This document shows positions 185 to 60,176 of a stretch of 64,000 bases of DNA, piece after piece; positions within the stretch are counted from its first letter, which is position 1; the number at the start of each line of letters is the position of its first letter. This DNA is from an uncultured delta proteobacterium. Lineage in GTDB: Bacteria > Desulfobacterota > Desulfobacteria > Desulfobacterales > B30-G6. The stretch spans positions 96,001 to 160,000 of the forward strand of contig CAWGLD010000001.1 of NCBI GenBank assembly GCA_963823335.1, written 5' to 3'. The notes under the pieces were generated by a model that was given only the letters and a program-made list of their open reading frames with translations, was not told the origin of the DNA and did not search any database. A program made the position numbers and the translations under genes.

Positions 185-362
185 GTGGATCTCTCCAGCA
201 AAAATAAGGTTATCAGACACCCTAAAAATTACCGGTGTGCGAAAATAATCACAACAGGCCAAAACTTGCATTGATAGACCCTGCCGTGATACCTTGGTGA
301 TGACCAGATGGTATCTGAAAAATCCCCAACTTGTCGGATAGTTGGACTTGTCTCCATGTATC
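185..362 (+). repeat. ~175-bp cassette-separating module, copy R1 (variant right half)
   Basis: gtggatctctccagcaaaaataaggttatcag...accggtgtgcgaaaataatcacaac...ggacttgtctccatgtatc; aligns by eye with R2-R11. Confidence 0.95.
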
Positions 363-366
363 GGTA

Positions 367-2415
367 TTGCGACACGAAGTCGCGTATTTTAACTGTTCAG
401 CGGAGGCATTTAGCCTTTGTCTGAACCCAGTGTCCCGTCGCTGCGATCCTATGGAAGCATGCGCTCAAGGTGCATCCTTGACGGGTATGAAGCCTTCCCG
501 ACAATGCGCCGAAGTTCGCCTGTGCGAGCGGTGTGGAAACCGTGAGGTGGAAACGCTCCTGGAAGCTCCATCCGGGTGAGGTGTTAGGATAGGATACTAT
601 GGTCAACGTAAGTAAACACTTGTAACTGCCGTGAATATGAACAAGCCAAAGGAGCTGTGAGGCTTGAACCAAAACGGTAAGTGGGTGGTTCGGATGGATT
701 GCTGAACGTCCGACACGGGCAGTATTCCCACCGGCAGAGCAGAGTGGACCTAAGGTATTCGCTGTTGGATACGTGGAACGTGGTAACCTCATGCCTTCGC
801 CTTCGGGCAGGCTAACCGTAAGGCATGCTGTGGGAGGTATGAGGAGAGAGGATGGAAGAAGCGAAGGCCATCCTGTAATGGGGTGGATACAGGTTGAGAG
901 CCTTAGGCTCGATATTACCTAACCCGCGAGGGGGCTGACGTCCATCGGGTGCTTCGTTGCGAGATAGTTTGTAGAACTTCTAAAGGAGGAAAAGCAAATG
1001 AGGGCTGCTAAAAAGCAGATCCATGCGTCCTCCCGCCGTACTCTTAAGTGGACTTCCATAAACTGGAAGAAAGTTAAGAAGAAGGTGAAGGAGCTGCAGA
1101 TGCGTATCGCAAAGGCCGTTCGAGAAGGAAAGCTACGGCTGGTTAAATCTTTGCAGTGGCTTTTGACTCATTCGTTTTATGGTAAACTTTTTGCCATAAG
1201 ACGGGTTGTTACCAACAAAGGAAAAGCAACACCGGGATCCGATGGTGTTGTGTGGAACTCATCTAAAAAGAAGATGCAAGCTGTAAACCTGCTAAGCCGA
1301 AGAGGATATCGTCCTTTCCCCCTTCGGCGGGTTTATATACGGAAGAAAAACGGCAAACTCCGACCTTTAAGTATTCCCACCATGAGGGATAGAGCAATGC
1401 AGGCTCTATATGCACTTGCTCTGGTACCAGTAGCAGAGACAATCGGTGACCTAAATTCGTACGGGTTCAGAGATGGTCGATGTTGCGCCGATGCCATTAA
1501 GCAGTGCTACAATTGTCTGGCAAAGCGTCGTTCCTCGCGGTGGATTCTTGAGGCCGACATTCAAGCCTGCTTCGATAGAATCGATCACGAATGGATGCTC
1601 AACAATATCCTGACTGATAAAAAGATACTTAGAAGCTGGCTAAACGCCGGATACATAGACGAGGGTAAACTTTATCCAACCAAAGCGGGTACTCCACAGG
1701 GATCAGTTATCTCTCCTGTACTTGCCAATATGACCCTGGATGGACTGGAAGCGGCTATTAGAAATGCAGTTCCCAAGAACGCCAAGGTCAACATGATCCG
1801 GTATGCAGATGACTTTATCGTAACTGGAAAATCAGAAGAGATTCTCCAGGAAAAAGTCAAGCCTGCAATCCGCGCATTTCTCAGCCAAAGAGGTTTAAAT
1901 CTCTCAGGCGAGAAAACAAGGATCACCAGGATAGAGAATGGATTTGATTTTCTGGGCCAACATCTGAGAAAATTTGGGGATAAGTTTATTGTTACCCCAT
2001 CAAAGAACTCGGTGAAAGGCATTGTTTCCAAAACAAAGGAAGTCATCAAATCCCATCTTGGCAACGCAACAGCGGAGATGCTACGAGAGCTCAACCCAGT
2101 AATCCGGGGATGGGCCAACTATCACCGCCATGCATGCTCCAAGAAAGCCTTCAACTATGTTGATTCCCGCATCTTCAATAATCTCTGGATATGGGCTAAA
2201 AGAAGGCATCAGGATAAAAAGGCCCAGTGGATACGAAATCGTTATTTTCGAACCATTGGTAACCGGCAATGGTGTTTTTTTGCAACCAAAAAGGCAGAGG
2301 GAGGTGGGGTTGGCGTCATCGATTTGGTCTATATGGCCACGGTAAAAATAGTTCGTCATACGAAAATCCGTGGCAAGGCAAATCCTTACGACAATAGATG
2401 GCAGGGATATTTTTC
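367..2415 (+). mobile_element. Group II intron (CL1-like), 3'-truncated; no domain V/VI seen
   Basis: TTGCGACACG 5' end at 367; ~630-nt structured leader; RT ORF; no GAGCCG...CGGTTC domain V recognisable after the ORF; 3' limit approximate. Confidence 0.8.
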
Positions 2416-2443
2416 CAAACCTTGTAGAATGAAGACTTATTAG
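998..2443 (+). CDS. ltrA: Group II intron reverse transcriptase/maturase
   Basis: INWKKV..LQMRIAKA N-terminus, RPLSIPTMRDRAMQ, GTPQGSVISP, YADD, maturase LNPVIRGWANYH; no endonuclease domain. Confidence 0.95.
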   Translation: MRAAKKQIHASSRRTLKWTSINWKKVKKKVKELQMRIAKAVREGKLRLVKSLQWLLTHSFYGKLFAIRRVVTNKGKATPGSDGVVWNSSKKKMQAVNLLSRRGYRPFPLRRVYIRKKNGKLRPLSIPTMRDRAMQALYALALVPVAETIGDLNSYGFRDGRCCADAIKQCYNCLAKRRSSRWILEADIQACFDRIDHEWMLNNILTDKKILRSWLNAGYIDEGKLYPTKAGTPQGSVISPVLANMTLDGLEAAIRNAVPKNAKVNMIRYADDFIVTGKSEEILQEKVKPAIRAFLSQRGLNLSGEKTRITRIENGFDFLGQHLRKFGDKFIVTPSKNSVKGIVSKTKEVIKSHLGNATAEMLRELNPVIRGWANYHRHACSKKAFNYVDSRIFNNLWIWAKRRHQDKKAQWIRNRYFRTIGNRQWCFFATKKAEGGGVGVIDLVYMATVKIVRHTKIRGKANPYDNRWQGYFSKPCRMKTY

Positions 2444-2480
2444 CGAAATCTTCAGTTCGATAAAATTTTACAAACACAAC

Positions 2481-2972
2481 ATGTTGGGTATAATTAATAT
2501 GCGAACCTTTGGATTAGCATCTATTTCCGATCTAAAAGGGTTGGTTAAAGTAGCAAAATCTGCATTCATAGATGATGAAAGATTCAAACCCCGTGAGGCA
2601 ACCGCAGGCGGTCCACCCGGACATGATCAAATAGAACGACATCGAGAATGGCTCGACTCATTGCTATACTATAAATGTGAAGAACACGGATCTATTGTAG
2701 GAACATGTACGGTAGAGATAAATGGTGATGAAGCAAAGATACATGGTATTCATGTGGTTTCTGAATCAATGGATCAAGGCATTGGCTCATATATGTTGCG
2801 TGAGATACAGACCGGGATGCCACATATAACTAAATGGACGTTAATTACGCCAGATTACGCTATACGCAACCAGCATTTTTATGAAATAAATGGGTTTACG
2901 TTGAAGCAAAGAGGTGATGTAGAACCAGATCTCGGGTTCGGCTTTTATACATATGAAAAAAATGTCCTATAA
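2481..2972 (+). CDS. GNAT family acetyltransferase
   Basis: QGIGSYML motif A, N..FYE.NGF. Confidence 0.85.
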   Translation: MLGIINMRTFGLASISDLKGLVKVAKSAFIDDERFKPREATAGGPPGHDQIERHREWLDSLLYYKCEEHGSIVGTCTVEINGDEAKIHGIHVVSESMDQGIGSYMLREIQTGMPHITKWTLITPDYAIRNQHFYEINGFTLKQRGDVEPDLGFGFYTYEKNVL

Positions 2973-3059
2973 CAGCATTCCCCTTGATCCTATAAGCTTG
3001 GAGTGTTTTATACAGAGAAATTGAAGATTACTGGCATAAGTCTCCAACTGGCCATTGCC

Positions 3060-3234
3060 GATTTCTCCAACAAAACGGTAGATATCAGGCACGCCAAAAA
3101 TTACCGGTGTGCGAAAATAATCACAACAGCTCAAATCTTGCATTCATAAACCCCCTCGTGGTACCGTGGGGATGACCGAATGGTATCGGTAATATTGCCG
3201 TTGAACTTGATAACTGGACTTATCTCCATCTATC
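3060..3234 (+). repeat. Module copy R2
   Basis: gatttctccaacaaaacgg...ggacttatctccatctatc. Confidence 0.95.
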
Positions 3235-3281
3235 TGTACTTGGATGATATTTGGATTTTCACAGGGGATAAAGGTGGAATA

Positions 3282-4130
3282 ATGGGTTTTCATAGAAAGA
3301 CATTGGTCGATGGACTTATATTTGGCGAAGGCCCGCGTTGGCATGATGATCGCCTATGGTTTTCTGATATGCAGGCAGGCTTAGTTATGGCCACAGATAT
3401 TGATGGAAATTGTGAAAAAATTGTTGATGTGCCAGGGAGCCCATCGGGTCTCGGATGGCTACCAGACGGCCGGCTATTGGTTGTGTCTATGATCGATCGG
3501 CGTTTGCTCAGGATGGAAGGCGAACGGCTCATTGAACATGCTGACCTGAGTAATATTGCCACCTGGCATTGCAACGATATGGTTGTAGATGGCAAGGGAA
3601 ACGCCTATATTGGTAATTTTGGTTTCGATTTAGAGGTTAATGATATCAAGCCTGTTGAAGCCACAATGGCCATGGTAACCCCTGAGGGTGAAGTTACGCC
3701 TGCTGCTGATGGGCTACTGTTTCCAAATGGAACAGTTATTACCTCAGATGCCAGAACTCTAATTGTTGCTGAAACATATGGAGCAAGGCTCACAGCTTTT
3801 GATATTCAATCAGATGGTACTCTGACGAATCGTCGTCTGTTCGCTGATGTCTCTCCACACTTCCCTGATGGGATATGCCTCGACACTGAAGGTGCAATAT
3901 GGGTTGCTGATCCAGTTGGTGGTGAATGCATTCGTGTACTCGAGGGGGGTGAAATTACCCATAGAATTGATACAGGGCGCGGATGCTTTGCCTGCATGCT
4001 TGGGGGGGCGAATCGGAATACACTTTTTATGATGACTGCCGGTGATTTTAGAACAGATACCGTTGTACGGGCCCAAAATGGTAAGGTTGAATATGTTGAA
4101 GTTGATGTACCAGGTGCTGGTTGGCCGTAA
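3282..4130 (+). CDS. SMP-30/gluconolactonase/LRE family protein
   Basis: GEGPRW, ND..VD..G, FPNG, PDGICLD; ATG at 3282 follows an RBS-like aaggtgg. Confidence 0.9.
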   Translation: MGFHRKTLVDGLIFGEGPRWHDDRLWFSDMQAGLVMATDIDGNCEKIVDVPGSPSGLGWLPDGRLLVVSMIDRRLLRMEGERLIEHADLSNIATWHCNDMVVDGKGNAYIGNFGFDLEVNDIKPVEATMAMVTPEGEVTPAADGLLFPNGTVITSDARTLIVAETYGARLTAFDIQSDGTLTNRRLFADVSPHFPDGICLDTEGAIWVADPVGGECIRVLEGGEITHRIDTGRGCFACMLGGANRNTLFMMTAGDFRTDTVVRAQNGKVEYVEVDVPGAGWP

Positions 4131-4218
4131 TATAACATAAACGGATTCCACGGATACTGAAAAAATGGAATTTGGTATACAGAACTATACATTGAAGTGA
4201 ATATTTTGGATTTTGGCC

Positions 4219-4398
4219 GTGGATGTCGCCAACAAAAACAAGGTTATCAGACCCCTTAAATATTACCGGTGTGCGAAAATAATCACAACCGACCGAATCT
4301 TGAATTAATAGTAGTTCTCATGGTACCGTGGAGATGACCGAATGGTATCGGTAATATTGCCGTTGAACTTGATAACTGGACTTATCTCCATCAATCAC
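4219..4398 (+). repeat. Module copy R3
   Basis: gtggatgtcgccaacaaaaac...ggacttatctccatcaatcac. Confidence 0.95.
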
Positions 4399-4553
4399 AA
4401 CTTTGATGAATGTTGTGATAGCCATCTCAGAATAATACTATTGGTTGATTCTTTCTTTTCGGTTTGAATCTCGTAAGGTATTTTTTTTGCAAAAGAACTT
4501 TTTCAGTGCGAAGGAAGCAGAACTTCATACTTTTAATAAAGAAAGGAGGAATC

Positions 4554-5009
4554 ATGAGAATATTTGTTAAGATTGGGATAGTGTTTCTGGTCTTGGCCTT
4601 AAGTTTCGGTATCGCCTTGGCCCAATTTGCCAAAACTGAAGATGCCATTGAATACCGGAAGTCCGTAATGCAGGTAATCAAGAAACATTTTGGTAGCATG
4701 GCCAGTGTTGTTAAAGGCGAAACACCTTATGATCAGGCTGCATTCCTTGAAGACGCAAAGGTCGTGGCAATGTTGTCGAAACTGCCATGGGAGGCTTCTA
4801 TGGTTCCCGGTTCAAATGAGGGTCAAACAACATTAAACGAAAAAGCGTTGAAGGATAAAGAGGGATTTATGGCTGTTGCAAAACGGTTCCAAAACCATAG
4901 CAGTGAACTAGCTGCGGCAGCAGAAAGTGGTGATATGGGAAAAATAAAGAAGCAGTTCGGAGCCACCGCTCAAACATGTGGCAGTTGCCATAAGCCCTAC
5001 CGAAAATAA
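4554..5009 (+). CDS. Class II cytochrome c (c'/c556)
   Basis: Signal peptide, C-terminal CGSCHKPYR heme motif, RBS aggagg. Confidence 0.9.
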   Translation: MRIFVKIGIVFLVLALSFGIALAQFAKTEDAIEYRKSVMQVIKKHFGSMASVVKGETPYDQAAFLEDAKVVAMLSKLPWEASMVPGSNEGQTTLNEKALKDKEGFMAVAKRFQNHSSELAAAAESGDMGKIKKQFGATAQTCGSCHKPYRK

Positions 5010-5019
5010 GTGCCCGGAT

Positions 5020-5623
5020 TCAGTTTATTATCAAATAGACAACTACAAGGGAAATTCCGAATATTATAGTGGCAGTCCAATGATTGCCGCCAGGTGGTGG
5101 TGCATCGCCAGGCCACATCTTGATACCCGTGAACATGGGTTTAATCAGGTTTTCATGTTTGACAACCAGGTAAAATATGATGGCTGTCAAATGAACAGCT
5201 ATAAGGCATCCGATCACAATAGCGTTGATGTTGTGGATGCGGGTAAGTGCGCTGCTGACGGAATTGCTCACCAAAGGGTAAAGCGGTCCTTCAGTGAATA
5301 TGTCATCGCTGGCAAATAGCCCAGTCATTGCTTGTAGCAACAGGGTGAGGAGCATAGCAACGACTGACCACCCCCCGAGGGGATTATGTCCTAGATAATG
5401 AGGCACATCCTTTTTAATAAGGCCGATTGCGTATTGTAATACAATTGATGGTCCACGAACAAAATTGACAAATCGAGAATGGTATCCACCCAAGACACCC
5501 CAAACAAAGCGAAAAAACAAAAAGATTAGCACTAAATATCCGCTATACATGTGGTAGGTCATTAAATTGCCACCGATTTTAGCGGTCACAACGCAGTTGA
5601 TTACCAAAACTGCTAGCACCCAA
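5020..5623 (-). pseudogene. Cytochrome b/b6-domain protein, N-terminus removed by IS256
   Basis: GHNPLGGW, H-bearing TM helices, HENLIKPMFTG; reading frame runs into the IS end at 5624. Confidence 0.8.
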
Positions 5624-6948
5624 GAGGGTGTTCAAAATTTTGTGTCAGTCTAACTGAAAGCTGATATATACAGCCCAAAGGAGACTGACATGCCAAAAGA
5701 TAATGCAGATTTTGATTTCCAGAAAGCCCTCAAAGCCATCCAATCAGGCAAGCCCCTTACTGGCAAAGACGGGGTGCTCACCCCATTAATCAAGAACCTA
5801 ACCGAAGCTGCACTCGAAGGGGAGTTAGACTCCCATCTTGGACAGGAGATAGCGGCCAATCGAAGAAACGGTAAGAGCAAAAAGACCATCAAGACCCTGA
5901 ACGGCTCCTTCGAACTGAACACTCCCCGTGAGCGCAACGGCACTTTTTCACCCCAGCTGATTAAAAAGCATCAGACGACCATCAGCGATGAGATCGAAGA
6001 AAAAATCATTGCCATGTACGGCCTGGGCATGAGCTATAAAGACATATCTTTTCATCTTGAGGATATCTATGGCATTTCTGTCTCTAAGGGCACTCTGACT
6101 GCGATTACAGATAAAATCATTCACACCGTGAAAGAGTGGCAAGCCCGGCCGCTTGAAACGATATATCCCATTGTCTGGCTTGATGCCATACACTACAAAA
6201 TCCGTGAAGATGGCAAGGTCCTCAGTAAGGCTGTTTACACGATCCTCGGGGTCAATATTGAAGGCCGCAAGGAGGTCCTTGGCCTGTATATCTCAGAGAA
6301 CGAAGGGGCCAACTTCTGGCTGCAGGTGCTGACCGATCTCTCTAACCGTGGCGTTGCCGATATCCTGATCGCCTGTATTGATGGGCTAAAAGGCTTTCCA
6401 GAAGCCATCGAGACAATCTTCCCCAAAACGGAAGTGCAACTTTGTGTGGTGCATCAAATTCGGAATTCCTTAAAATACGTTGGCTCCAAAAACCAGAAGG
6501 AATTCATGGTCGATCTCAAGCGCGTCTACAAAGCAGCCAACAAGGATTTAGCCGAATCCGAATTGGACAAGCTCGAAGCCAAGTGGAACGACAAGTATCC
6601 GATTGTCATTAAGTCCTGGCGCAACAACTGGGAGCGTCTGAGTCAATTCTTCAAATACCCGGAGGATATCCGCAGGATCATTTACACAACGAACACCATT
6701 GAGGCGGTTCACCGTCAATTCCGTAAGCTGACCAAGACTAAAGGCGCTTTTCCGAACCAGGACAGTTTGTTGAAATTACTGTATATGGGCATCCAGAATG
6801 CCAGTAAAAAATGGACCATGCCGGTTCAGAACTGGTCATTAACTATCTCTCAGTTGGCTATATTTTTTGAGGGCAGACTGGATAAAGAATTAAAGCTCTG
6901 ATATGATTAATTACAATTTAAAACTGACACAGAATTCTGAACATACCC
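5624..6948 (+). mobile_element. IS256-family insertion sequence
   Basis: Imperfect terminal IRs gagggtgttcaaaattttgtgtcagt / actgacacagaattctgaacataccc; no target duplication seen. Confidence 0.9.
5690..6901 (+). CDS. IS256-family (Mutator) transposase
   Basis: RNGK, WLDA, DGLKGF, QLCVVHQIRNS, IYTTNTIE. Confidence 0.95.
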   Translation: MPKDNADFDFQKALKAIQSGKPLTGKDGVLTPLIKNLTEAALEGELDSHLGQEIAANRRNGKSKKTIKTLNGSFELNTPRERNGTFSPQLIKKHQTTISDEIEEKIIAMYGLGMSYKDISFHLEDIYGISVSKGTLTAITDKIIHTVKEWQARPLETIYPIVWLDAIHYKIREDGKVLSKAVYTILGVNIEGRKEVLGLYISENEGANFWLQVLTDLSNRGVADILIACIDGLKGFPEAIETIFPKTEVQLCVVHQIRNSLKYVGSKNQKEFMVDLKRVYKAANKDLAESELDKLEAKWNDKYPIVIKSWRNNWERLSQFFKYPEDIRRIIYTTNTIEAVHRQFRKLTKTKGAFPNQDSLLKLLYMGIQNASKKWTMPVQNWSLTISQLAIFFEGRLDKELKL

Positions 6949-7123
6949 GATTTCTCCAACAAAAAGGTAAATATCAGCTCTCTGAAATTGTACCGGTGTG
7001 CGAAAATAATCACAACCGACCGAACCTTGCGTTGGCGTACCTTTCCGTGATACCTTGGCGATGACCATATGGTATCGGTGATATTCCCGTTGAACTTGAT
7101 AACTGGACTTATCTCCATGTATC
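6949..7123 (+). repeat. Module copy R4
   Basis: gatttctccaac...ggacttatctccatgtatc. Confidence 0.95.
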
Positions 7124-7189: not shown

Positions 7190-7356
7190 TTGACCCATCC
7201 TTTTAATTCATGTATATATCGCATATCGCATCTAAATCACACCTGATCTGAAGCCGAATTTAAACTTGAACCTGAGTTGAGCTCATTCTCGATCTGTTCT
7301 CACCTTTTCCAAGACATATCATCTTCTTCAAACCTCAAAACCAGAAGGTGATCCAC
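7190..7356 (+). promoter_or_regulatory. Conserved promoter and leader of adenylate cyclase genes (copies ~52166-52328 and ~55893-56047; partial ~18494-18570)
   Basis: TTGACC-17bp-TA(T/C)nnn, then aatcacacctgatctga and ttccaagac.tatcatcttcttcaaacc..aaccagaaggtgatc. Confidence 0.7.
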
Positions 7357-9123
7357 ATGCCCACAGAAAAAAGAGCCACACGCAAACTCAGAGCCATTCT
7401 TTCTGCTGATGTTAAAGGCTACAGCATCCTTATAGCGGATGATGAGACCTTCACAATCAAAACTATTAAAGAATATCGAAGCATAATATCCAACTGCATC
7501 GAGCAATATGCCGGTCGGGTTGTGGATAGTCCCGGTGATAACATACTGGCGGAGTTTGCAAGTGCGGTTGATGCTGTACAGTGTGCAGTGGAAATTCAAA
7601 AACAATTGAAGAAAGAAAATGACCGGCTTGTAGAGAACAAAAGGCTGGAGTTCAGAATTGGTGTGAACATCGGTGATGTTGTGCAGGATGAGAATCGTAT
7701 CTATGGTAATGGTGTTAACATTGCCTCAAGGATTGAGGGTTTGGCAGATCCTGCTGGCATCTGTGTATCTCGCAGTGCATACGATCAGATAAAAAATAAA
7801 ATGGGTTTCAGTTTTGAATATATGGGGGAACACTCTGTTAAAAATATATCTGAACCAGTAAGAGTTTATAAAGTTCTAATGCATTCTAATTCACCATCAC
7901 CTTTGGTTGAAGAGACGCTGAAGCTGCCGGACAAACCATCCATTGCAGTCTTGCCATTTGTAAACATGAGTGGAGATCCTGAGCAGGAGTATTTTTCTGA
8001 TGGAATAACAGAAGACCTCACAACTGTTCTGTCACGGAATTCGTTGATGTTTGTGATAGCACGGAACTCCAGCTTCGCCTACAAAGGAAAGGCAGTCGAT
8101 GTAAAAAAAATTAGCAAAGAACTTGGGGTTCATTATGTATTGGAAGGAAGCGTACGAAAGGCAGGAACAAGAATCCGTGTAACAGCACAGCTTATTAATG
8201 GGATTAATGGAAAGCATGTATGGGCAGAGAAATATGATGGTGAGCTTCAAGACATTTTCGATTTGCAGGATCAAATAACACAAAAGATTGTTGCTTCAAC
8301 CCAAACCCAAGTAGCATTAAGTCTTGGAGAAGTCAGAACAGCTGCAAGACATGAAAACTTAGATACTTGGGATATTACCGCAAAAGCTTTAAAATATAGT
8401 TATGATCTAACTGAAGACAGTCTTAGAAAGGCTGAAAAACTCTTACGATCAGCCATAAAGTCAAATCCAAAATCTGATTCTGCTTATGCTTTGCTTGCAA
8501 GTGTTTTATTTCATCTATTATTGATGGGGTATGAACAGGAGAACGTTAGTGAAATTTTAAATGAATCTTTTCAATACTCAGCAAAAGCAATATCAATTAA
8601 TGAATCTAATGAAATTGGGCATTGGATTAACGGAAACCTTCAGCTATTTTCCAGAAGAAATCATGATTATGCGCTTGCGGAGTATGATCGTCTGATAGAA
8701 ATAAATCCTAATAATTCGTTAGCATATGGCTCTCTCGGCGCTGCCCTAACATTTTCCCGAAAATATGATCAAGCAATAAAAAATATTGAATTAGCAATAA
8801 GAATTAATCCTATGGACCCAAGCATATTTTTTCGATTCTCTGAAATAGCATTGGCTTATCTTCTTAAAGGAAAATATAACGATGCAATTGATTGGTCAAC
8901 CAAGTGTATCCATAAAAGATCCAGTTGGATAGCTGGTCATTTTGTTTTAATAGCATCTCTTGTAAATCTTAATCGTCTCGATGAAGCAAAACAAGCAACC
9001 AAGGAGTTGTTGAATACCAACCCAACTGCAAGAGCATCTGATATTTCAATGTATCCGTTTAAATACGCTGAAGATGTGATAAAGTTACAAAAAGCTCTCT
9101 GTAAAGCAGGTCTACCTGAATAA
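7357..9123 (+). CDS. Class III adenylate/guanylate cyclase with TolB-N-like and TPR domains
   Basis: ILSADVKGYS, PGDN, FRIGVNIGD, GNGVNIASRIE; DKPSIAVLPF; TPRs. Confidence 0.9.
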   Translation: MPTEKRATRKLRAILSADVKGYSILIADDETFTIKTIKEYRSIISNCIEQYAGRVVDSPGDNILAEFASAVDAVQCAVEIQKQLKKENDRLVENKRLEFRIGVNIGDVVQDENRIYGNGVNIASRIEGLADPAGICVSRSAYDQIKNKMGFSFEYMGEHSVKNISEPVRVYKVLMHSNSPSPLVEETLKLPDKPSIAVLPFVNMSGDPEQEYFSDGITEDLTTVLSRNSLMFVIARNSSFAYKGKAVDVKKISKELGVHYVLEGSVRKAGTRIRVTAQLINGINGKHVWAEKYDGELQDIFDLQDQITQKIVASTQTQVALSLGEVRTAARHENLDTWDITAKALKYSYDLTEDSLRKAEKLLRSAIKSNPKSDSAYALLASVLFHLLLMGYEQENVSEILNESFQYSAKAISINESNEIGHWINGNLQLFSRRNHDYALAEYDRLIEINPNNSLAYGSLGAALTFSRKYDQAIKNIELAIRINPMDPSIFFRFSEIALAYLLKGKYNDAIDWSTKCIHKRSSWIAGHFVLIASLVNLNRLDEAKQATKELLNTNPTARASDISMYPFKYAEDVIKLQKALCKAGLPE

Positions 9124-9170: not shown

Positions 9171-9346
9171 TAGTATCTCCAACAAAAACAAGGTTATCAG
9201 ACCCCTGAAAATTTACCGGTGTGCGAAAACAATCACAACAGACGGAATCTTGCATTGGTAAGGTCTCCCATGGTACCGTGGGCATGACCGTATGGTATCG
9301 GCAATAATTTCGTTGAATTTGATAACTGGACTTGTCTCCATGTATC
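9171..9346 (+). repeat. Module copy R5
   Basis: tatctccaacaaaaac...ggacttgtctccatgtatc. Confidence 0.95.
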
Positions 9347-10283: not shown

Positions 10284-10462
10284 GTGCTGTCTCCAACGAT
10301 TCGGTAGATATCAGAGTGCTGAAAATTTACCGGTGTGCGAAAATAATCACAACAGACCAATTCTTGCATTGGCAGGACCTCCCGTGATACCGTGGGCATG
10401 TCCATATGGTATCAGCAATATTGCCGTTGAACTTGGTAACTGGACTTATCTCCATAAATCAC
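10284..10462 (+). repeat. Module copy R6
   Basis: gtctccaacgattcgg...ggacttatctccataaatcac. Confidence 0.95.
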
Positions 10463-11052: not shown

Positions 11053-11228
11053 AGCACTCTCCAACAAAAACAAGGATATCAGACCCTTAAAATATTACCG
11101 GTGTTTGAAAATAATCACAACAGGCAGAATCTTGCATTCATAAGCCCTAAAATGGTACCATGGCGATCACCAGATGGTATCGGTAATATTGGCATTGATC
11201 TTGATAACTGGACTTATCTCCATGTATC
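11053..11228 (+). repeat. Module copy R7
   Basis: ctctccaacaaaaac...ggacttatctccatgtatc. Confidence 0.95.
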
Positions 11229-11585: not shown

Positions 11586-14000
11586 ATGAGATCGAAACTT
11601 CAACATGGTTTTATCTTGCTGCTGTTTGTTGGTTTTGGAGTTTTGGCATTTGTGGGTTGTGGCAGTGGCGGTGGCGGTGGTGGTGACGGAGACAACGTCT
11701 CTTCCGGCAATGACTCTGTAGACCAAAATCCGATTATCACGGCTATGGTGTCTACAGACACTGACAAACTATCCCTTGCATGGCTCCCGGCGACAGATAA
11801 TGAGACACCTGCTGACCAGGTTGTTTATGAGGTCCACCTTTCGAAAAGTGAAACCTTTGAACCGAACAGCACTACCCTTAAGAAAACCATTTTGGGTGAT
11901 CGGCAGGTAAACGTGGCTGGTCTGGAGCCGGATACAACCTATTACGCTATCATCCTCGCTATTTTTCCAGGTGGTACAGATGCCCAAAGCAACCCTCTGG
12001 CTGCCACAACATTTGCAAATCCTGTCCTTAAAAACGCGGCAAATACCGTGAAGCAGGCAGACGAGCTTGGTCTTGGGCGATACGCTGCTTCAGACGCCAC
12101 CAGCTTAACCTTCCCCTATAATGACAATGCCGTGCTGCCGGAAGTCGGAACCATCTTGTTCGCTGAAAGCGTTGATGGTGAGATCGTATTGCGACGTGTT
12201 GTTTCCTGTGTATCGGCAAACCCGGTCATTACGATCAATACCACGGCAGCTTCACTCACAGATGTTTTCGAAGATGCAACCATCAGTTCGGCATTTCACC
12301 TGGTTGACATAGGTGGTGACACAACCTTTTCAAGAAATGTTTCTACCGCGAAAATGGGGACAGACCTATATTTTCAGAGCAATTGGGATGACGGATTTCT
12401 GACAATCGATCAAGTCGATTATGTCCATAATGAACAGAACTTGAAAGTGACACCAAGGAATATCAATTCGAATATCACCAGCGAATTTAATATCCAGGTC
12501 ACACCTTCTTTTGAACCGGTACTGGAAACATACGCCAATTGGAGCGGGTTCCAGCTTAATTCCGCGGTGGTCACCGCCAGAGGGACATTGAGCATTGAAG
12601 CCCTGGCCGAGTATAATTTTGAGGCTCAGGGAACATGGGAGGATGAGGTTGAAATAACCAACAGAACCTGGACCAGTATATACTACATCGGTACAGTCCC
12701 AGTATTTCAGCAGATCAGCCTGTCCATCAAAGTAGCTGCTTCAGCTGAAGCTCAAGCCAAGATAAAAGCCTCCACCAATGCAAGCATATCCCGCACGGTC
12801 GAGGTTGGCGCCACCTACACAAATGCAGGCGGGTGGGAGACATTCTTGAACGAGACCAATGATGAATCACTTACGGCAAACCTCGATATTGGTGCGGAAG
12901 CCAGCGCCGAGGTCAGAATCATACCCGAAGTCAGGGTCACATTCTACACGGTCTTAAGTAGCTACTTGAGCGTTGAACCATATTTACGGGGTGGATTGGC
13001 TGTAGGCGATACAACAAGTAATTGGGATTTTCTCGCAATTCATCCAGATCGTGCGCTTGAGTTGACCACTTTTGAATCAGCGCTTGGGCTTGAAAGCTTC
13101 ATCGGTGCAGATTTGACAGTCTTTGGCAACAGCTTTCCCATTCTGGAAAAGACCTGCGTGCTTGGCCCGGTTTCGAACGCTTCGTGTACAGCAAACATTG
13201 ACGAACTTACGCTATTTTCACTGCCGGAACTCACGCTTACGGTACCGCAAAACTCAAACAGTACACAGGAAGAGCTGAAACTGGAGGCAATTCACGGCGT
13301 GAACAACCCATTTGATCCAACCTCCGTTCAGTGGGAGGTTTTTCCTTCATCGGCCAGTATCGAACCACACGAGTGCTCAGATTCAACCGGAAATGGCCAG
13401 ACTAAGACAACCTGCACGGCCACGCTTTCGATGTCTGGAAGCGATGAATATACGGTGTTTGCGTCCGGCCAAGGTGTTTTGGGTGAATTGGCAAGACAGT
13501 TTGAGGAAGGTGATATATATCAATCTGATTGTATTTATGGTACCAGCACCAGGTTAAATAACGTAATCGTTTATTGGAAGAACTGTTCAACATCGCGTGA
13601 ACTGGCTTACATAAACCAACCAGGAGACGACTCTGGTTCTACGGATATTGTTCTTGCTGCAAAGGTAATATGTAATGAGGATTTTGTTGGTGAATGTCCA
13701 GACCCGAATAGGTGGGTAGAAGTAGTTTTTGAAGGATCAGAGATAAGATATATTTATTTATTCTTTTTAAATGGAGAAAGCGTTAATACGAATTATTATT
13801 GTGATGGCGATTCCTATTTTGGGAGATTAAATCGTACGACACTGGATAATCCTTCTCCTGTACAGATAGGTGACTATTTTATCTCCCTCTCAGCCTGCAG
13901 AAGCGCTCTATCAGAATATGTTCCAAACGACGACGATTTAATTTATCCAGGTAGTTGCCACAGTTGGTGGGATCATGATGGAGAAACTTGTATTTATTGA
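11586..14000 (+). CDS. Large lipoprotein with fibronectin type III domain
   Basis: Lipobox FVGC plus poly-G linker; W..ATDN, GLEPDTTYY. Confidence 0.75.
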   Translation: MRSKLQHGFILLLFVGFGVLAFVGCGSGGGGGGDGDNVSSGNDSVDQNPIITAMVSTDTDKLSLAWLPATDNETPADQVVYEVHLSKSETFEPNSTTLKKTILGDRQVNVAGLEPDTTYYAIILAIFPGGTDAQSNPLAATTFANPVLKNAANTVKQADELGLGRYAASDATSLTFPYNDNAVLPEVGTILFAESVDGEIVLRRVVSCVSANPVITINTTAASLTDVFEDATISSAFHLVDIGGDTTFSRNVSTAKMGTDLYFQSNWDDGFLTIDQVDYVHNEQNLKVTPRNINSNITSEFNIQVTPSFEPVLETYANWSGFQLNSAVVTARGTLSIEALAEYNFEAQGTWEDEVEITNRTWTSIYYIGTVPVFQQISLSIKVAASAEAQAKIKASTNASISRTVEVGATYTNAGGWETFLNETNDESLTANLDIGAEASAEVRIIPEVRVTFYTVLSSYLSVEPYLRGGLAVGDTTSNWDFLAIHPDRALELTTFESALGLESFIGADLTVFGNSFPILEKTCVLGPVSNASCTANIDELTLFSLPELTLTVPQNSNSTQEELKLEAIHGVNNPFDPTSVQWEVFPSSASIEPHECSDSTGNGQTKTTCTATLSMSGSDEYTVFASGQGVLGELARQFEEGDIYQSDCIYGTSTRLNNVIVYWKNCSTSRELAYINQPGDDSGSTDIVLAAKVICNEDFVGECPDPNRWVEVVFEGSEIRYIYLFFLNGESVNTNYYCDGDSYFGRLNRTTLDNPSPVQIGDYFISLSACRSALSEYVPNDDDLIYPGSCHSWWDHDGETCIY

Positions 14001-14098
14001 AACGTCAATTCGCAGGATTTCGAAATGTCGCCATACTGAGTGGATGTCTCGGACAGGGGGACCATCACGACGACTAAAAATTGAGGTTTCCTAAAACC

Positions 14099-14340
14099 GT
14101 GGATATCTCCAACAAAAACAAAGATATCATGCACGCCAAAAATTACCGGTGTGCGAAAATAATCACAAATTAAAAGGGTGAGTCCGAGCCATGGATTCGC
14201 CCCTTTTTTATTGGCACAAAGCAGCGTTATTAGGGTCTACAGTTTGACACCAGGTTTAATGATGCGATAGACTGCATATATCCAGATGGTATCGGTGATA
14301 ATTAGGCTGAGCTTGATAACTGGACATCTCTCCATGTATC
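14099..14340 (+). repeat. Module copy R8, centre replaced by unrelated DNA (14169-14281)
   Basis: Left part 14099-14168 and right part 14282-14340 match the consensus. Confidence 0.9.
14172..14209 (+). terminator. Intrinsic-terminator-like hairpin inside R8
   Basis: aaaagggtgagtcc...ggattcgcccc followed by a T-run. Confidence 0.55.
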
Positions 14341-18255: not shown

Positions 18256-18428
18256 TTTCTCCAACGAAAACAAGGTTATCAGCCCCCTAAAATATTACCG
18301 GTGTGCGAAAATAATCACAACCGACCGAATCTTGCATTAATAATAGTTCCCATGGTACCGTGGGGATGACCGAATGATATCTGACAATTTTTCAGATTGT
18401 CGGATAGTTGGACTTGTCTCCATAAATC
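18251..18428 (+). repeat. Module copy R9 (same variant right half as R1)
   Basis: gttgatttctccaacg...ggacttgtctccataaatc; overlaps the SulP stop codon. Confidence 0.95.
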
Positions 18429-19189: not shown

Positions 19190-19352
19190 GTCTTTTCAAC
19201 AACTATGCAGATATCAGGTGCTCCCGAAATTAAAATTATCACAACAGACCAAATCTTGCATCCATAGACACCTACGTGGTACGCTGATGATCACCAGATG
19301 GTATCGGTAAATTTATCAGGGAAATTGATAACTGGACTTTTCTCCATGTATC
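19190..19352 (+). repeat. Module copy R10 (degenerate; lacks accggtgtgcg)
   Basis: atcacaacagaccaaatcttgca...ggacttttctccatgtatc. Confidence 0.9.
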
Positions 19353-21127: not shown

Positions 21128-21301
21128 AAGCCTCCAACAAAAACAAGGTTATCAGATACCTAAAATTTCACCGGTGTGCGATTATAATCACAACAGGCTG
21201 AATCTTGCATTGATAAGAATTTCCGTGGTGCTTTGGTGATGCCCAGATGGTATCGCTGATATTTACATCAAACTTGATAACTGGACTTATCTCCATAAAT
21301 C
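21128..21301 (+). repeat. Module copy R11
   Basis: cctccaacaaaaacaagg...ggacttatctccataaatc. Confidence 0.95.
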
Positions 21302-28049: not shown

Positions 28050-28160
28050 AGAGATCAGAGATCAGAGATCAGGGCTTTGAATAAGATCACAAATGAACCT
28101 CGAAGGCGCGAAGAACATTTCAGAGATCGGAAGTCAGAGATCAGAGGTCTGAGGTCGGTA
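28050..28160 (+). repeat. Heptamer (TCAGARR) repeat tract; related copy at 42942-43055
   Basis: cagagatcagagatcagagatc...aaggcgcgaag.acatttcagagatcgga.gtcaga. Confidence 0.8.
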
Positions 28161-28241: not shown

Positions 28242-28545
28242 CTACACTTGTGGGAACATATCTGCTATAATGTCGGCCAATGGAGCGGGGGCAGTGATCC
28301 CGGACATAGTGTCACTGACATTATGGGACCTTTCTCGCTCCAGTCTTTTTTTCCGCTGACGTTTGCTAACAGGGGCTGTTTGATCGTAACCCTGAAGACG
28401 ACGACTGGTACTATCTATAGGTTCATTGCCCTGCATTGGCACACTTCGCAATCTATTCGCCAAATCGATATGTGGGTTGAATGGCCGGTTGTGTTTAAGC
28501 ATACCGTAAAGGATCCGCACGATCTTGTGCATGCATGCACCCATA
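28242..28545 (-). pseudogene. IS110-family transposase C-terminal fragment
   Basis: MGACMHKIVRILYGMLKHNRPFNP. Confidence 0.65.
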
Positions 28546-29301
28546 AGCTCCGTCGTATCCAACTTGTTTGGCAATACCGGACGCAATCTAATGAATAAGC
28601 TAATCGATACGGATATTGAAATAACAATTGGACATGTCGAAGAATGTGCCGAGGGAAGTCTCAAACAAAAAGTTCCAGAGCTCTTTCGGTCCATTCAAGG
28701 TTTTTTTGAAACCCATCATCGTTTTCAGCTGAAAATGATGATGCAGACTATCAATCACCTTGAGAGTGAAATTGAAGCTATTACCAGACGCCTGGATGAT
28801 ATTATGCTTCCCCATCAGGAGATGATCGACCAACTAGATCAGGTTCCCGGTATTGATAAAAAAACAGCCCAATCGATCATCGGTCATATTGGTGATACAT
28901 TAACAGCCTTTAGATCAGAGAAAGCTTTAGCTTCATGGGGAGGGCTTTGTCCCGGCAACAATGAGAGTGCCGGGAAACGAAAAAGTGGAAGAAGTCCGGT
29001 GCGCAAACACCCTTTTAAGGAACTGATGATCGAAATTGCCTGGGCTGCTGTGAGGACAAAAGGCTCCTACTATAAAGACAAGTATCATCGTCTTAAATCC
29101 AGGCGGGGGGCCAAAAGAGCCATTGTCGCCATAGCCCATCGAATCACCAAAGCAGTTTATCATATCATTAAATATGGAAAATCGTTTGTCGATCTTGGCG
29201 AAGCGTATCTTATGTCAAAGAGCAAAGAAAAACGAATAAAAGCGCTAAAATCAAGAGCCAAGTATCTTGGCTTTAACCTGGTGCCGTTAGAGGCGAAGTG
29301 A
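28545..29301 (+). pseudogene. IS110-family transposase lacking its N-terminal RuvC-like domain
   Basis: VPGID, GLCPGNNESAGK, AIVAIAHR. Confidence 0.85.
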
Positions 29302-29644: not shown

Positions 29645-30181
29645 TACCCATACCGTACCCGGAAAAACCTCTATTAGATCTGAGAAATATGATGAAAAAC
29701 ATCATAATCACAGCAATTGTTATTTTTATAGTCGTCGAACTTATCGAACATATTATTTTCCCGATAGTTTGGTACATCTTGAAAGGGAGGAAAAAATCTA
29801 CGTATGGTGTGACCAGCATGATAGGGAAAGTTGTTGAGATTCGTACATGGCATAATACTAAAGGACAAGTATTAATCAACGGCGAGTTATGGAAAGCTGA
29901 ATGCGAGGCTTCCTTACCCGTTGGTGGCAAAGCGGTGGTTTATGATATTGATGGACTTACATTGAAGTTAAAGCCTTACGAAAATTCATAGAGGAGATTT
30001 TACTGCCTTAATCCATAAATATTTATCATAATGGAAGGTGCTTCATGAAAACAGACTTATACGCAAAGACCATCTTGACCATTATCGCTATCTGCCTGCT
30101 GTATATGACTTGCAGGGATATGGTAGTACCAGCTTATGCAGATCGTAACGATATCGTTGACGTCAATATCGTAGCAGTGAG
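29645..30181 (+). repeat. 537-bp near-identical direct repeat, copy 1 (copy 2 at 43175-43711)
   Basis: Identical by eye except ~3 substitutions. Confidence 0.95.
29689..29991 (+). CDS. NfeD-like C-terminal (OB-fold) membrane protein, copy 1
   Basis: TM helix, GQVLINGELWKA. Confidence 0.8.
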   Translation: MMKNIIITAIVIFIVVELIEHIIFPIVWYILKGRKKSTYGVTSMIGKVVEIRTWHNTKGQVLINGELWKAECEASLPVGGKAVVYDIDGLTLKLKPYENS

Positions 30182-33525: not shown

Positions 33526-33781
33526 CTCCTGATTGCTCGGGTCCTTGGTTAATACCTTTTAAAGCGTGTCCGCAGCCCCTGTCGACCGGGTTGGGGCGTT
33601 ACCCAAAATGTATCAATTCATCGACATGTAGTTCAATTGATACGTTTTTTCATACACCTTCCGAAAACGCATGTCGAGCGAATTTTCGTCAATCAATATT
33701 CGTCTAACAAATTATGAACGTTATTCACCCGTTAGCATCTTTGCCCGCGTTTCTTTTCAATCCGTTGCAGCCAGATAAAAA

Positions 33782-42756: not shown

Positions 42757-43218
42757 AGGGTTCAGACGCACCCCCCACCACAGACATTGTAACGTCAAGC
42801 CGTAAGATGGTAAGTGGGGACGTTCGTGCTGAACGTGCATGGCTCCGGTTCTTCGGATAAGGTATTTTTGCAAATAGGTGCATGTCCGATAGTTCTTTGC
42901 GGCTTTGGTTTCCGGTTGTAAAAAGAAAAAATAACCACTAAGGCGCGAAGGACATTTCAGAGATCGGAGGTCAGAAGTCAGAAGTCAGAAATCAGAGGTC
43001 AGGGTTTAAAATAAGATCAGAAACGAACCTCAAAGGCGCGAAGGACGCTAAGATTTTGTTTTTTACCTGATCGGGGTAACCGATCAGGTAAATCATCATG
43101 CCCTGCTGACAACATTCACGAATTCGATATCTAACCAAACTGTGCGCCCTTTATTAATGTTGGAATTAATCTCCTACCCATACCGTACCCGGAAAAACCT
43201 CTATTAGATCTGAGAAAT

Positions 43219-43521
43219 ATGATGAAAAACATCATAATCACAGCAATTGTTATTTTTATAGTCGTCGAACTTATCGAACATATTATTTTCCCGATAGTTT
43301 GGTACATCTTGAAAGGGAGGAAAAAATCTACGTATGGTGTGACCAGCATGATAGGGAAAGTTGTTGAGATTCGTACATGGCATAATACTAAAGGACAAGT
43401 ATTAATCAACGGCGAGTTATGGAAAGCTGAATGCGAGGCTTCCTTACCCGTTGGTGGCAAAGCGGTGGTTTATGATATTGATGGACTTACATTGAAGTTA
43501 AAGCCTTACGAAAATTCATAG
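43219..43521 (+). CDS. NfeD-like membrane protein, copy 2
   Basis: Identical to copy 1. Confidence 0.8.
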   Translation: MMKNIIITAIVIFIVVELIEHIIFPIVWYILKGRKKSTYGVTSMIGKVVEIRTWHNTKGQVLINGELWKAECEASLPVGGKAVVYDIDGLTLKLKPYENS

Positions 43522-45616: not shown

Positions 45617-45692
45617 GTGGTACGCTGGGCATGACCAGATGGTATCGGTAATAATTTGGTCGAGTTTGATAACTGGACTTGTCTCCATGTAT
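45617..45692 (+). repeat. Right half of the module
   Basis: gtggtacgctgggcatgaccagatggtatcggt...ggacttgtctccatgtat. Confidence 0.9.
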
Positions 45693-48294: not shown

Positions 48295-48421
48295 TGTGTT
48301 CGATTATATTCACAACTACCCAAACCTTGCCAAAACAGTTCTCCCCGTGATACCTTGGAAAAAGCCAAAGCGTATCGGCGATATTGCTATAAATTCCAAT
48401 ATGTAAAATTCTCCATGTCTC
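48295..48421 (+). repeat. Diverged module copy
   Basis: gtgttcgattatattcacaac...ttgccaaaac...gtgataccttgg...tatcgg...ttctccatgt. Confidence 0.75.
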
Positions 48422-49273: not shown

Positions 49274-49397
49274 GTGGTATCTAACAACAAAACGGTAGAT
49301 ATCAGACCCCTGAAAATTGCCGGTTTGCGAAAATAATCACAACAGGCGAAATCTTGCACTCATAGGCTCTTCCGTGGTACCGTGGGCATAACCAGAT
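49274..49397 (+). repeat. Left two-thirds of the module (includes the promoter motif)
   Basis: caacaaaacggtagatatcag...aataatcacaac...gtggtaccgtgg. Confidence 0.9.
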
Positions 49398-50511: not shown

Positions 50512-51050
50512 AAAAAGAGCGTTGAAGATTTCGGCTATCATTGTTCACTCAGACCTATGACTTTAAAAGCGTGGATTGATAATAAAATTCCACGCTTTTG
50601 TTGTTTCTATGGCTATACAATATAATGTGGTGATGGCGTCTGGCATGAAACCTGTGATTTCTCCATCTATCGTTACTTGCCCAATATTTGGTTTTAGAGA
50701 AACATTTCAGAACATATCACAACCCATTCAAAGCACCTGAAAAATCCATATCTTGTGGACTTCATAATTTTTTGATATTGTGCCGATTAATCTGAAGCAG
50801 GCGAGAATTTGACCTGATCTTCCAACACACCGCACCACAATACACCTGGTTCAGTCTTTCGTTCACACGTTTCACAATAGCTCAACGATACTTGAGTTTG
50901 GTGTAACTTAACAATAATGCAAGTATCTTTGACTAGAAGCTATCTCAAGCAGTGTTAATATATGGCAACCTTCGGCTTCATGTACGAAGTACTTATACGC
51001 TGCATAGAGTACCCGGTTAACCGCACTTCCTGTCTGGGGCTTTTTTGCGT

Positions 51051-51769: not shown

Positions 51770-51878
51770 GATACATGGGAGATATCCAGTTATCAAACGC
51801 AACCAAATTATTACCGATACCATTAGGTTATGCCCAAGGTATCATGGGGAGGACTGTTTTGGCAAGGTTTGGGTATTC
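51770..51878 (-). repeat. Inverted, diverged module copy
   Basis: Reverse complement: acccaaaccttgccaaaac...tgataccttgg...tggtatcggtaat...gataactggatatctcccatgtatc. Confidence 0.85.
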
Positions 51879-52328
51879 GTTAATCTGATACCGTTTCCCC
51901 GCTCGGTAAAACCCGTTTTTCCGTTCTGATCAGGCAACCTCAAGGAGGTGAATATTGGCCACCCGCTTGCACAGGCTGTACATTCTTTGCAGTTTATCCA
52001 AAGCGGACACCTCTATACATTAGCCCAACCATTATTTCAAATCAGTTTAAACATACAAGACAGGAAATATTATGATATCATCACCTCGGCTGGACTCGCC
52101 TGAGCCGGTGATATCAGATAAAACTTAACAGCACATGGTTCGATGAAGAGCTCGAAAATACAATTCTTGACCCATCCTTCCAAATCAGGTACTAATTTTA
52201 TAGTCGCTTAAATCACACCTGCTCTGATGCTGGATCTCATTTCCAACGGACCTAACCTCTTTCTGTAACAGATATTGCATTTCCAAGACGTATCATCTTC
52301 TTCAAACCCCAACCAGAAGGTGATCCAC

Positions 52329-59509: not shown

Positions 59510-59746
59510 AAGTACTTATTAATACAAGATACCTGTCATAGATCACGCTTTTAGAGGCTTAAGAAACCTTCACTATCTGGTACTCTCCAACATATGCTGA
59601 TCCCCCCTCTATTTCAGATCAAAACCTACCAAATGGGAAACATTGTGATATCGTCACCTCAGTGGAGTCACCTGAATCTTGGATATCATATCAAACCTAA
59701 CATCGCCCGGCTGTATGATGAACTCGAAAATGCAATTGTTGACCTA

Positions 59747-60014
59747 TTACCTTTGCACCGGTGATCATGTACAGCGCCATAGAGTGGGCAAGCTTAACAT
59801 CAAATCCGGCCTCTTGTAGCCCATCAACAAGCCAATACCAGTTGATGGTCGCTTCTACGACTACAGGTGGCCTTGGAGAAAATGATTCAAGCGCATATAA
59901 AATGGTCCCAAGATCATTTTTTAATTTCTCTTTTAGTAAAATCTTGTCCTTGTCATCAATGACACACAGAAAAGAATTCGTTGCGTGAAGATCAATTCCA
60001 CAGTAAAATTTCAT
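59747..60014 (-). pseudogene. IS110-family transposase N-terminal fragment
   Basis: YCGIDLH, VVEAT.NWYWL.D.L; frame breaks after GAKV. Confidence 0.85.
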
Positions 60015-60176
60015 GATAGGCCTCCTCAGTTGGGGTTGAATGATAGTTGCCAGACTATACATTCTACCCTAAAAGGAGGCCGCCTTTAATAATTATCAAC
60101 TTTTCGGAGAGTGTTCGCAGGTGTTGATGAGTTGGAGTAATCGGCAATTTTAATCGGCCTGATCAACTGAGCATTA

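Follow-up and report, generated by a model that had tools for sequence, protein, structure and literature searches.

The window analysed here, a stretch of 64,000 nucleotides of Desulfobacterales DNA, raises the question whether the conserved motif at 266-295 is a promoter for the gene behind it, and whether the genes of the surrounding array each carry such a promoter or depend on one that they share. An earlier note had described the motif as TTG(C/A)nn-N18-TACnnT with TG just upstream of the second hexamer, had read it as a sigma70 promoter under selection, and had suggested that each cassette comes with its own promoter and recombination site rather than using one common Pc. The motif itself was found as described. 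On the + strand, positions 266-295 hold TTGCAT, 18 bases and TACCTT, with TGA directly 5' of the second hexamer, and the examples quoted from other copies, including TTGCCA..tgaTACCTT at 48.3 and 51.8 kb, all read as written. The pattern TTGM-N20-TACNNT had 14 matches in the window against 3.95 +/- 2.19 expected from 100 dinucleotide shuffles, none of which reached 14. Twelve of the 14 lay within copies of a repeated module, and the remaining two, at 33607 and 40693, both on the - strand, were unrelated to it.

The module is about 170 bases long and is present in the window in approx. 15 copies or partial copies, 11 of which stand between 0.2 and 21.3 kb, all on the + strand. Its layout is a TCTCCA core, part A, part B, part C with about 60 conserved bases, a second TCTCCA core and then the cargo; in copy R1 the boundaries are a left core TCTCCA(G) and a right core TCTCCAT followed by GTATC. 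The module is a mosaic: all versions have part A (columns 1-68) and part C (from column ~114) in common, and part B between them occurs in three unrelated versions. The features of the window to which the text refers are the following.

192..362, + strand: module copy R1 (repeat families D1-D4; 15-copy alignment; nhmmer match C1:96188-96371)
~192-255, ~256-299 and ~300-362, + strand: part A, part B with the promoter motif, and part C of R1
244..249, + strand: second promoter-like hexamer of R1, AATAAT in part A, with a weak -35 partner; TATAAT in other copies
266..271, + strand: proposed -35 hexamer of R1, TTGCAT (pattern match and column counts)
287..295, + strand: TG-n and proposed -10 hexamer TACCTT of R1 (extended -10), predicted start at ~302
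367..2470 (approximate ends), + strand, the same direction as the proposed transcript: group II intron just behind the right core of R1
3138..3167, + strand: R2 motif, TTGCAT-N18-TACCGT (pattern match)
4300..4329, + strand: R3 motif, TTGAAT-N18-TACCGT (pattern match)
7027..7056, + strand: R4 motif, TTGCGT-N18-TACCTT (pattern match)
9250..9279, + strand: R5 motif (pattern match)
10364..10393, + strand: R6 motif (pattern match)
11132..11161, + strand: R7 motif, second hexamer TACCAT (pattern match)
14176..14273, + strand: R8, type-2 part B, with a terminator hairpin at 14176-14202 followed by a T run, TTGACA at 14244-14249, N18 and TAGACT at 14268-14273
18332..18361, + strand: R9 motif (pattern match)
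19256..19285, + strand: R10 motif, second hexamer TACGCT, 11 bases of part A missing (pattern match, alignment)
21205..21234, + strand: R11, TTGCAT-N18-TGCTTT, second hexamer without its A at position 2 (repeat families, alignment)
45618..45692 (C1:141617), + strand: part-C-only copy with TGG-TACGCT and AACAGA in place of the -35-like hexamer
48327..48356, + strand: diverged module copy, TTGCCA-N18-TACCTT (pattern match, alignment)
49354..49383, + strand: truncated copy ending after the motif, TTGCAC-N18-TACCGT (pattern match, alignment)
50654..50671, + strand: bare core site TCTCCATCTATC with no module
51836..51865, - strand: diverged module copy, TTGCCA-N18-TACCTT, followed by a 5'-end fragment of the group II intron

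Column statistics were derived from 90 distinct copies aligned to the module profile, 61 from the organism's own genome and 29 from relatives, a copy being admitted only if it covered profile columns 60-140. The hexamers were 18 bases apart in 87 of the 90 copies (17, 19 and 56 bases in one each) and 82 different spacer sequences were counted, hence the observation of a constant 18-bp spacing over a variable spacer was borne out. In the first hexamer the counts were T 88, T 90, G 87, C 69, A 84 and T 82; the TG before the second hexamer was kept as T in 84 and G in 83 copies; and the second hexamer had T 84, A 84, C 87, two variable positions and T 90. The combination TTGnnn-N18-TAnnnT was satisfied in 77/90 copies, with TG 2-3 bases before the second hexamer also in 73/90, and 25 of the 29 copies from relatives kept TTG-N18-TAnnnT. 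The entropy was 0.14 bits for the TTG and 0.25 bits for positions 1, 2 and 6 of the second hexamer, the module mean being 0.73 bits, while positions 4-5 of that hexamer (1.51 bits) and the spacer columns 91-100 (1.22 bits) were among the most variable of the module. The GG after the second hexamer was kept in 80/81 of the 90 copies, and the position of the predicted start, about 7 bases after that hexamer, was a purine in 83.

Enrichment, spacing and conservation counts are insufficient alone to call the motif a promoter. Indels are rare over the whole module in the 90-copy alignment, and since the module as a whole is almost indel-free, the fixed spacing is not diagnostic; the argument from fixed spacing and variable spacer to a sigma70 promoter thus did not suffice. 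The type-1 hexamers TTGCAT and TACCGT match the consensus at 6 of 12 positions (3/6 each), and a standard promoter scan omits the site. The -35 hexamer lies within the usual 16-19-base spacing; in the -10, A2 and T6 are retained, its TATAAT match is only 3/6 and its interior is C/G-rich. Conservation extends to ATT-n-ATA after the first hexamer, to the GG after the second, and to a near-invariant block 5-20 bases past the second hexamer (A in 90/90 at column 114, GGTATC in 82-90/90), and among the hexamer windows of the module conservation is highest in the right core (columns 165-170), ATGGTATC (122-129) and ACCGGTGT (45-52). A promoter does not need conservation 20 bases past its -10, therefore another constraint has to overlap.

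The decisive support comes from the alleles of part B. Type 1 is the TTGCAT-N18-TACCnT motif, with its weak -35 and its TG. In type 2 (window 14169-14279) its place is taken by an intrinsic terminator of 10-11 pairs and a T run, approx. 30 bases, TTGACA, 18 bases and TAGACT. Thirteen copies of type 2 were found in four genomes (seven in the organism's own genome, the others in three relatives with 4, 1 and 1 copies). TTGACA was complete, 6/6, in all 13, compared with 3/6 in type 1; the 18-base spacer was constant in length and varied in sequence among the copies; and the second hexamer was TAGACT in 6, TAGATT in 5, TAGACC in 1 and TAGTAA in 1 (TAGAYT in 11/13). This hexamer precedes the shared CCAGATGG of part C by 8 bases, which is the register that TACCGT occupies in type 1. 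In R8 the scan reported a terminator with 11 pairs and a promoter matching the consensus at 10/12, in the same register before part C. The spacers of types 1 and 2, read by eye, agree at only 6/18 positions. Type 2, with its consensus -35, lacks the TG extension, and type 1, where the -35 is weak, has it; judged from the sequences, this complementarity is the trade-off expected of sigma70 promoters. Two part-C-only copies that have no -35 region (C1:141617, window 45618; and C1:86674) keep TG-n-TAnnnT.

Type 3 stands beside the recombinase gene described below and consists of TTGACA-N18-TATTCT, in the organism's own genome and in G001, or of TTGACA-N18-AATTCT in G002 and in G015, which belongs to another family; part C follows. 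Its hexamers are one base out of register relative to part C. An invariant TAGAAT on the opposite strand shares bases with the second hexamer and has TTGCCG/TTGCAG 17 bases upstream of it, and this pair looks like the recombinase gene's own promoter; the overlap could explain why the second hexamer of type 3 is conserved. Type 2 was counted as one lineage and one independent event, and type 3 likewise, which makes two independent replacements in total. The chance of TTGACA and TAnnnT at the required positions of a replacement segment was estimated from base frequencies to be of the order of 1e-5 per event. Non-homologous alleles with TTGACA-N18-TAnnnT at the same place before the same downstream block thus argue for a promoter in this slot, and it is on them that the sigma70 assignment of the earlier note now rests as the best-supported one.

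The constraint over and behind the -10 has a reading of its own, namely that the conserved bases, with their repeated GGTAYC/TATC, would be binding sites for proteins of the recombination machinery and their likeness to a promoter would be incidental. Each module has six to seven nTATC-like motifs, with GGTACC and GGTATC 22 bases apart; the third-position C of the -10 is kept in 87/90 copies; the right core, ATGGTATC and ACCGGTGT, not the promoter hexamers, are the windows conserved best; and the cores bound the module, with the recombinase gene inside one module. All of this is in agreement with protein sites, which however leave unexplained the TTGACA-18-TAnnnT of two unrelated replacements and the presence of TG only where the -35 is weak. 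Since such sites are compatible with a promoter, e.g. one controlled by the recombinase, they need not replace it, and we regard their doing so as rather unlikely. Three other readings appear considerably less probable still. The working promoter could be the AATAAT/TATAAT of part A (244-249 in R1), in which case the 266-295 motif would lie within its transcript. That hexamer has A at position 2 in 89/90 and T at position 6 in 87/90 copies (AATAAT 45, TATAAT 17, AATTAT 9, TATTAT 7), and the scan flags CTGAAA-17-AATAAT, with 9/12, in three window copies; its -35 partner is poor and variable, however (CTGAAA 22 and CTAAAA 20 of 90), it has no TG extension, and in type 2 the terminator follows within about 10 bases, hence transcripts from there would end at once. 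We consider a start in part A improbable.

Hardly more credit can be given to TACCnT as the 5' arm of a functional hairpin (GGTACC:GGTATC), in RNA or in single-stranded DNA, resembling the fold of an attC or a leader structure. The stem was predicted by Alifold on the + strand, and one position alternates between A and G, giving A-U or G-U, which fits the + strand only. Compensatory changes were found in 0/23 predicted pairs of the + strand and 0/18 of the minus strand, however, one stem pair is G-G in 24/90 copies, and mutual information detected only allele effects between neighbouring columns and no long-range Watson-Crick pairs. Folding of the 61 bases behind the motif was no better than that of shuffled sequences in 11 of 12 window copies (z from -1.29 to +1.58; the other had -2.51). 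Of the covariance models of Rfam 15, only that of the group II intron matched at gathering score, and in the modules of 2950-4450 no Rfam family matched even at E up to 1. This hairpin is thus very improbable, slightly more so than the start in part A. Finally, the constant length could reflect a reading frame, if the module encoded a small protein of 42 codons on the minus strand, from ATGGAG to TAA. The frame is open over at least 42 codons in 35 of the 68 copies having the ATGGAG start, but premature stops interrupt it in the other 33, and the codon-position entropies (0.73/0.71/0.79) give no third-position excess, so that a coding function is hardly credible.

Three minor observations belong to the same columns. 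An AA/TT alternation just 5' of the part A hexamer is among the strongest column couplings of the module. A plus-strand mini-ORF from the ATG of part C was considered and dropped, the G of this ATG being present in only 60/90 copies. A sigma54 reading of the TTGCA was likewise rejected; no GG/TGGCAC was seen by eye at the right distance.

Reading the motif as a sigma70-type promoter within a separable junction module is the best-supported interpretation and, in our judgement, a probable one, transcription being its prediction. Extended -10 sigma70 promoters have TG one base before the hexamer, A at position 2 and T at position 6, and tolerate a weak -35; a GGGA-like discriminator after the -10 and the TG extension compensate for weak hexamers. 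The module shares the TG, the A2/T6 and the weak -35 with them, and differs in that its hexamer interior is C/G-rich with one inner position conserved; its activity is a prediction only. The promoter would thus be of the extended -10 kind, with a weak -35 TTGCAT, an 18-base spacer and TG-n-TACCnT followed by GG, and it would face the next gene. RNA polymerase with the housekeeping sigma factor would bind part B and start about 7 bases after the second hexamer, so that part C would form the beginning of the transcript, which would continue across the core and the leader of the cargo as far as the next gene. The stop codon of the upstream gene and the module are separated by gaps of 3-100 bases. 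With type 1, read-through from the upstream gene would be unblocked and the promoter would add to it, while the terminator of type 2 would insulate the unit. The surplus of conserved bases over and behind the -10 suggests that GGTACC/GGTATC forms an overlapping protein site, possibly of the recombinase, which may couple expression to recombination.

The orientation of the genes agrees with this working. The longest downstream ORF lies on the module strand in 60 of 69 modules, on the opposite strand in 6, and is lacking in 3, and all genes of the 0-22 kb array are on the + strand. Upstream of four tRNA genes TTGACA/TTGACG and TATAAT-like hexamers were found with spacers of 16-18 bases, 13-19 bases before the gene, the spacer being 18 bases in two of the four best cases; promoters of the sigma70-consensus type are therefore in use in this genome. 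Against the promoter reading there are also these findings: the AATAAT/TATAAT of part A makes a better -10, the first possible start codon is a median of 223 bases from the module, and the cargo leaders have promoter-like sites of their own in the standard scan. Six RNA libraries contained 6-10% of the sampled sequence words. In four RNA libraries short contigs of 99-100% identity cover cargo genes (e.g. 2203-2420, 3286-3570 and 4539-5068), hence the organism or a near relative was present in the RNA samples. Other contigs, at 13851-14117 and 14142-14335, extend over part A and the region of the R8 terminator, and some include parts A and B upstream of the predicted start. Since these contigs carry no information on start, end or strand, they speak neither for nor against the start site.

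The earlier note had assigned a promoter and a recombination site to each cassette. The proposed promoter does recur with the modules, but it belongs to the module, which is bounded by TCTCCA, and not to the cargo gene. Both module ends carry the core (left ...TCTCCAAC; right ...TCTCCATnTATC), and the 12-position right-core pattern TCTCCATnnATC occurs 86 times in the genome versus approx. 9 expected from composition, 58 times at module ends and 28 times elsewhere, mostly inside array regions. Several of the sites outside modules come in pairs about 35-40 bases apart or follow other short elements that recur. Two modules are 98% identical up to the two cores, and the flanks beyond these are unrelated on either side; another duplication spans module, gene and module and ends exactly behind the right core. 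The segment of approx. 270 bases that follows the bare core (50660) is found again, with 87% identity, directly after full modules at C1:1514399-1514679 and in the relative G007. Thus the 98% pair with its unrelated flanks and the cargo segment that occurs with and without a module identify the module as a separable unit and not a part of the cargo. The segment 50660-50928 is non-coding, with no ORF of at least 60 codons on the + strand, and recurs at 67-89% identity across the genome and in relatives, always behind a core.

A candidate for the enzyme lies just past the end of the window. It is an Xer-like recombinase of about 277 codons at C1:163908-164738, with the Pfam domain PF00589; its best NCBIfam model was of the XerA type, at 102 bits and below the cut-off. 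The gene is located, reversed, inside a module, between part A (columns 4-67) and the type-3 promoter with part C, an arrangement also present in G001 and in G015 of the other family. Beside it, an outward Pc-like promoter faces the array and overlaps the divergent promoter-like site for the recombinase. Homologues at E <= 1e-20 were found in 15/41 genomes, the organism's own included. The recombinase would act at the cores, and part A is probably the part that it binds. More speculatively, one may regard the module as an independently mobile 'expression cassette' made up of a recombination site, an optional terminator, a promoter and a fixed leader, which the small Xer-like recombinase, encoded in the promoter slot of one module, would insert or remove at TCTCCA cores between any cargo genes; with approx. 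90 sites per genome across a Desulfobacterales family, gene order and transcription units would then be shuffled by the same machinery. We hold this wider model to be possible and put it forward tentatively.

In the recombinase gene, the ATG that has a good ribosome-binding site does not share the frame of the 277-codon ORF, and the two frames meet at a run of nine A (L044:3955-3963, where L044:3908-4738 corresponds to C1:163908-164738). Eight or nine A stand at the same place in eight loci of different genomes. The run may point to slippage or control by frameshifting; the alternative is a homopolymer error common to these loci. Two further tyrosine recombinases were noted: one of 226 amino acids, unrelated to that carried by the module, near the array at 1.51 Mb of C1, and one of 375 amino acids (PF00589) at C7:240497-241624, beyond the end of the C7 array.

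Integrons are the textbook case of gene capture, and most of their cassettes are promoterless and fall silent with distance from Pc. The array resembles an integron in being a one-directional series of unrelated cassettes, and it shares with the integron platform (intI, PintI, Pc, attI) and with sedentary chromosomal arrays a tyrosine recombinase, unrelated genes in one direction and an outward promoter by the recombinase. It differs from the platform in having the recombinase gene inside a module, between parts A and C, and in having promoters repeated along the array. In the whole genome no gene reached the cut-off of 265 bits for the integron integrase TIGR02249; the best score, 88.5 bits, was that of an Xer-like gene elsewhere, and the recombinase described above had 34.6 bits against the integron-integrase model. 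A hairpin of the attC type was not found in the modules, for which the stems given by Alifold were all short and local, with 0 pairs showing compensation on either strand. The system is therefore organised like an integron without integron parts, and is not an integron. In the layout of its promoter motifs the array does not follow the single-Pc plan, the motif being present in 77/90 module copies. The claim that the genes have their own promoters rather than one shared Pc was thus correct as to the motif repeated along the array, but incomplete, since a Pc-like promoter stands beside the recombinase too.

Two described systems come near to this arrangement. Integron cassettes can bear promoters, and in the excerpted text of PMC8876359 the qacE 5'UTR segment is a promoter pseudo-cassette for downstream cassettes. 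As far as that excerpt describes it, the likeness lies in a promoter within the array that serves downstream, otherwise position-dependent genes, and that is fused before different cargo. In contrast, we find here a conserved module of ~170 bases before nearly every gene, bounded by its own cores, with IntI and attC absent. The rAID-1 arrays of gut Bacteroidales have, in the part of the report available (Ross et al., 10.1101/471110), a tyrosine recombinase of the XerD family and intergenic sequences that are repetitive and 'reminiscent of integrons'. Going by that description, the likeness consists of an Xer-family recombinase and a repetitive intergenic sequence between the array genes, while the phylum, the repeat and the cargo are different (metabolic, signalling and uncharacterised genes in the present case), and that part of the report mentions no promoter for rAID-1. 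A full-text search of the literature gave integron papers only, and in none of its results was there a standard junction module whose promoter slot has three versions, the recombinase gene being located in one.

An Xer-like system thus appears to solve the expression limit of integrons by means of a swappable promoter module before nearly every gene, in some cases insulated by a terminator. Expression signals seem to move together with genes in this integron-like shuffling system. If confirmed, the modules would be natural modular 'promoter parts' moved by site-specific recombination, and would offer a route to studying how large accessory-gene arrays stay expressed in environmental bacteria.

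As to distribution, nhmmer gave 89 module matches in the genome of 4.37 Mb, of which 53 were near full length, with arrays on C1, C4, C5, C7 and C9. The module was found in 12 of the 40 relatives searched: in 11/14 genomes of the same family, in the single genome of a second family, and in 0/25 genomes from 25 further families of the order. A 27-base word of part A was present in 18 public records, all of them metagenome bins, of the Desulfobacterales/'delta proteobacterium' type with the exception of one small Zixiibacteriota contig. Close to module arrays, at a distance of a few kb at most, are tRNA genes (Glu, Met, Lys) at C1:1516648, C1:1761167 and C4:534143.

Each array module is followed by a different + strand gene, and the cargo belongs to diverse Pfam families, including GNAT acetyltransferases, a gluconolactonase-like protein, cytochrome c', an IS256-type transposase and a cyclase-TPR protein, as well as a PAS-LuxR regulator, a SulP transporter and a choloylglycine hydrolase. 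The transposase gene, of the IS256/Mutator family, is complete (5690-6901) and forms the cargo between R3 and R4. Three paralogous adenylate/guanylate cyclase-TPR genes were found at 7348-9123, 52275-54086 and 56048-59509; a module precedes the first only, and the upstream regions of the paralogues are conserved (repeat families D5, D7, D10 and D11).

The group II intron behind R1 was identified by Rfam RF02012 at 426-583 (79.5 bits) and has a reverse transcriptase/maturase ORF at 998-2443. A fragment of its 5' end, at about 51700-51500 on the - strand, is located at the same junction behind the 51.8-kb copy. The orientation and position of the intron are weakly suggestive of a transcribed leader. 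No spliced junction over the intron was listed in the RNA-library contigs; one such contig joins the end of an R3-like module (4399) to the start of the intron (367).

Further repeats and mobile elements were noted in the rest of the window. A 300-base repeat with an NfeD-like ORF is present at 29645-29944 and 43175-43474 with 100% identity, and heptamer-type tandem repeats at 28082-28152 and 42919-42989 flank the transport/CoA-ligase block of 30-43 kb. Fragments of IS110-type transposases are located at 28525-29301 and 59697-60062.
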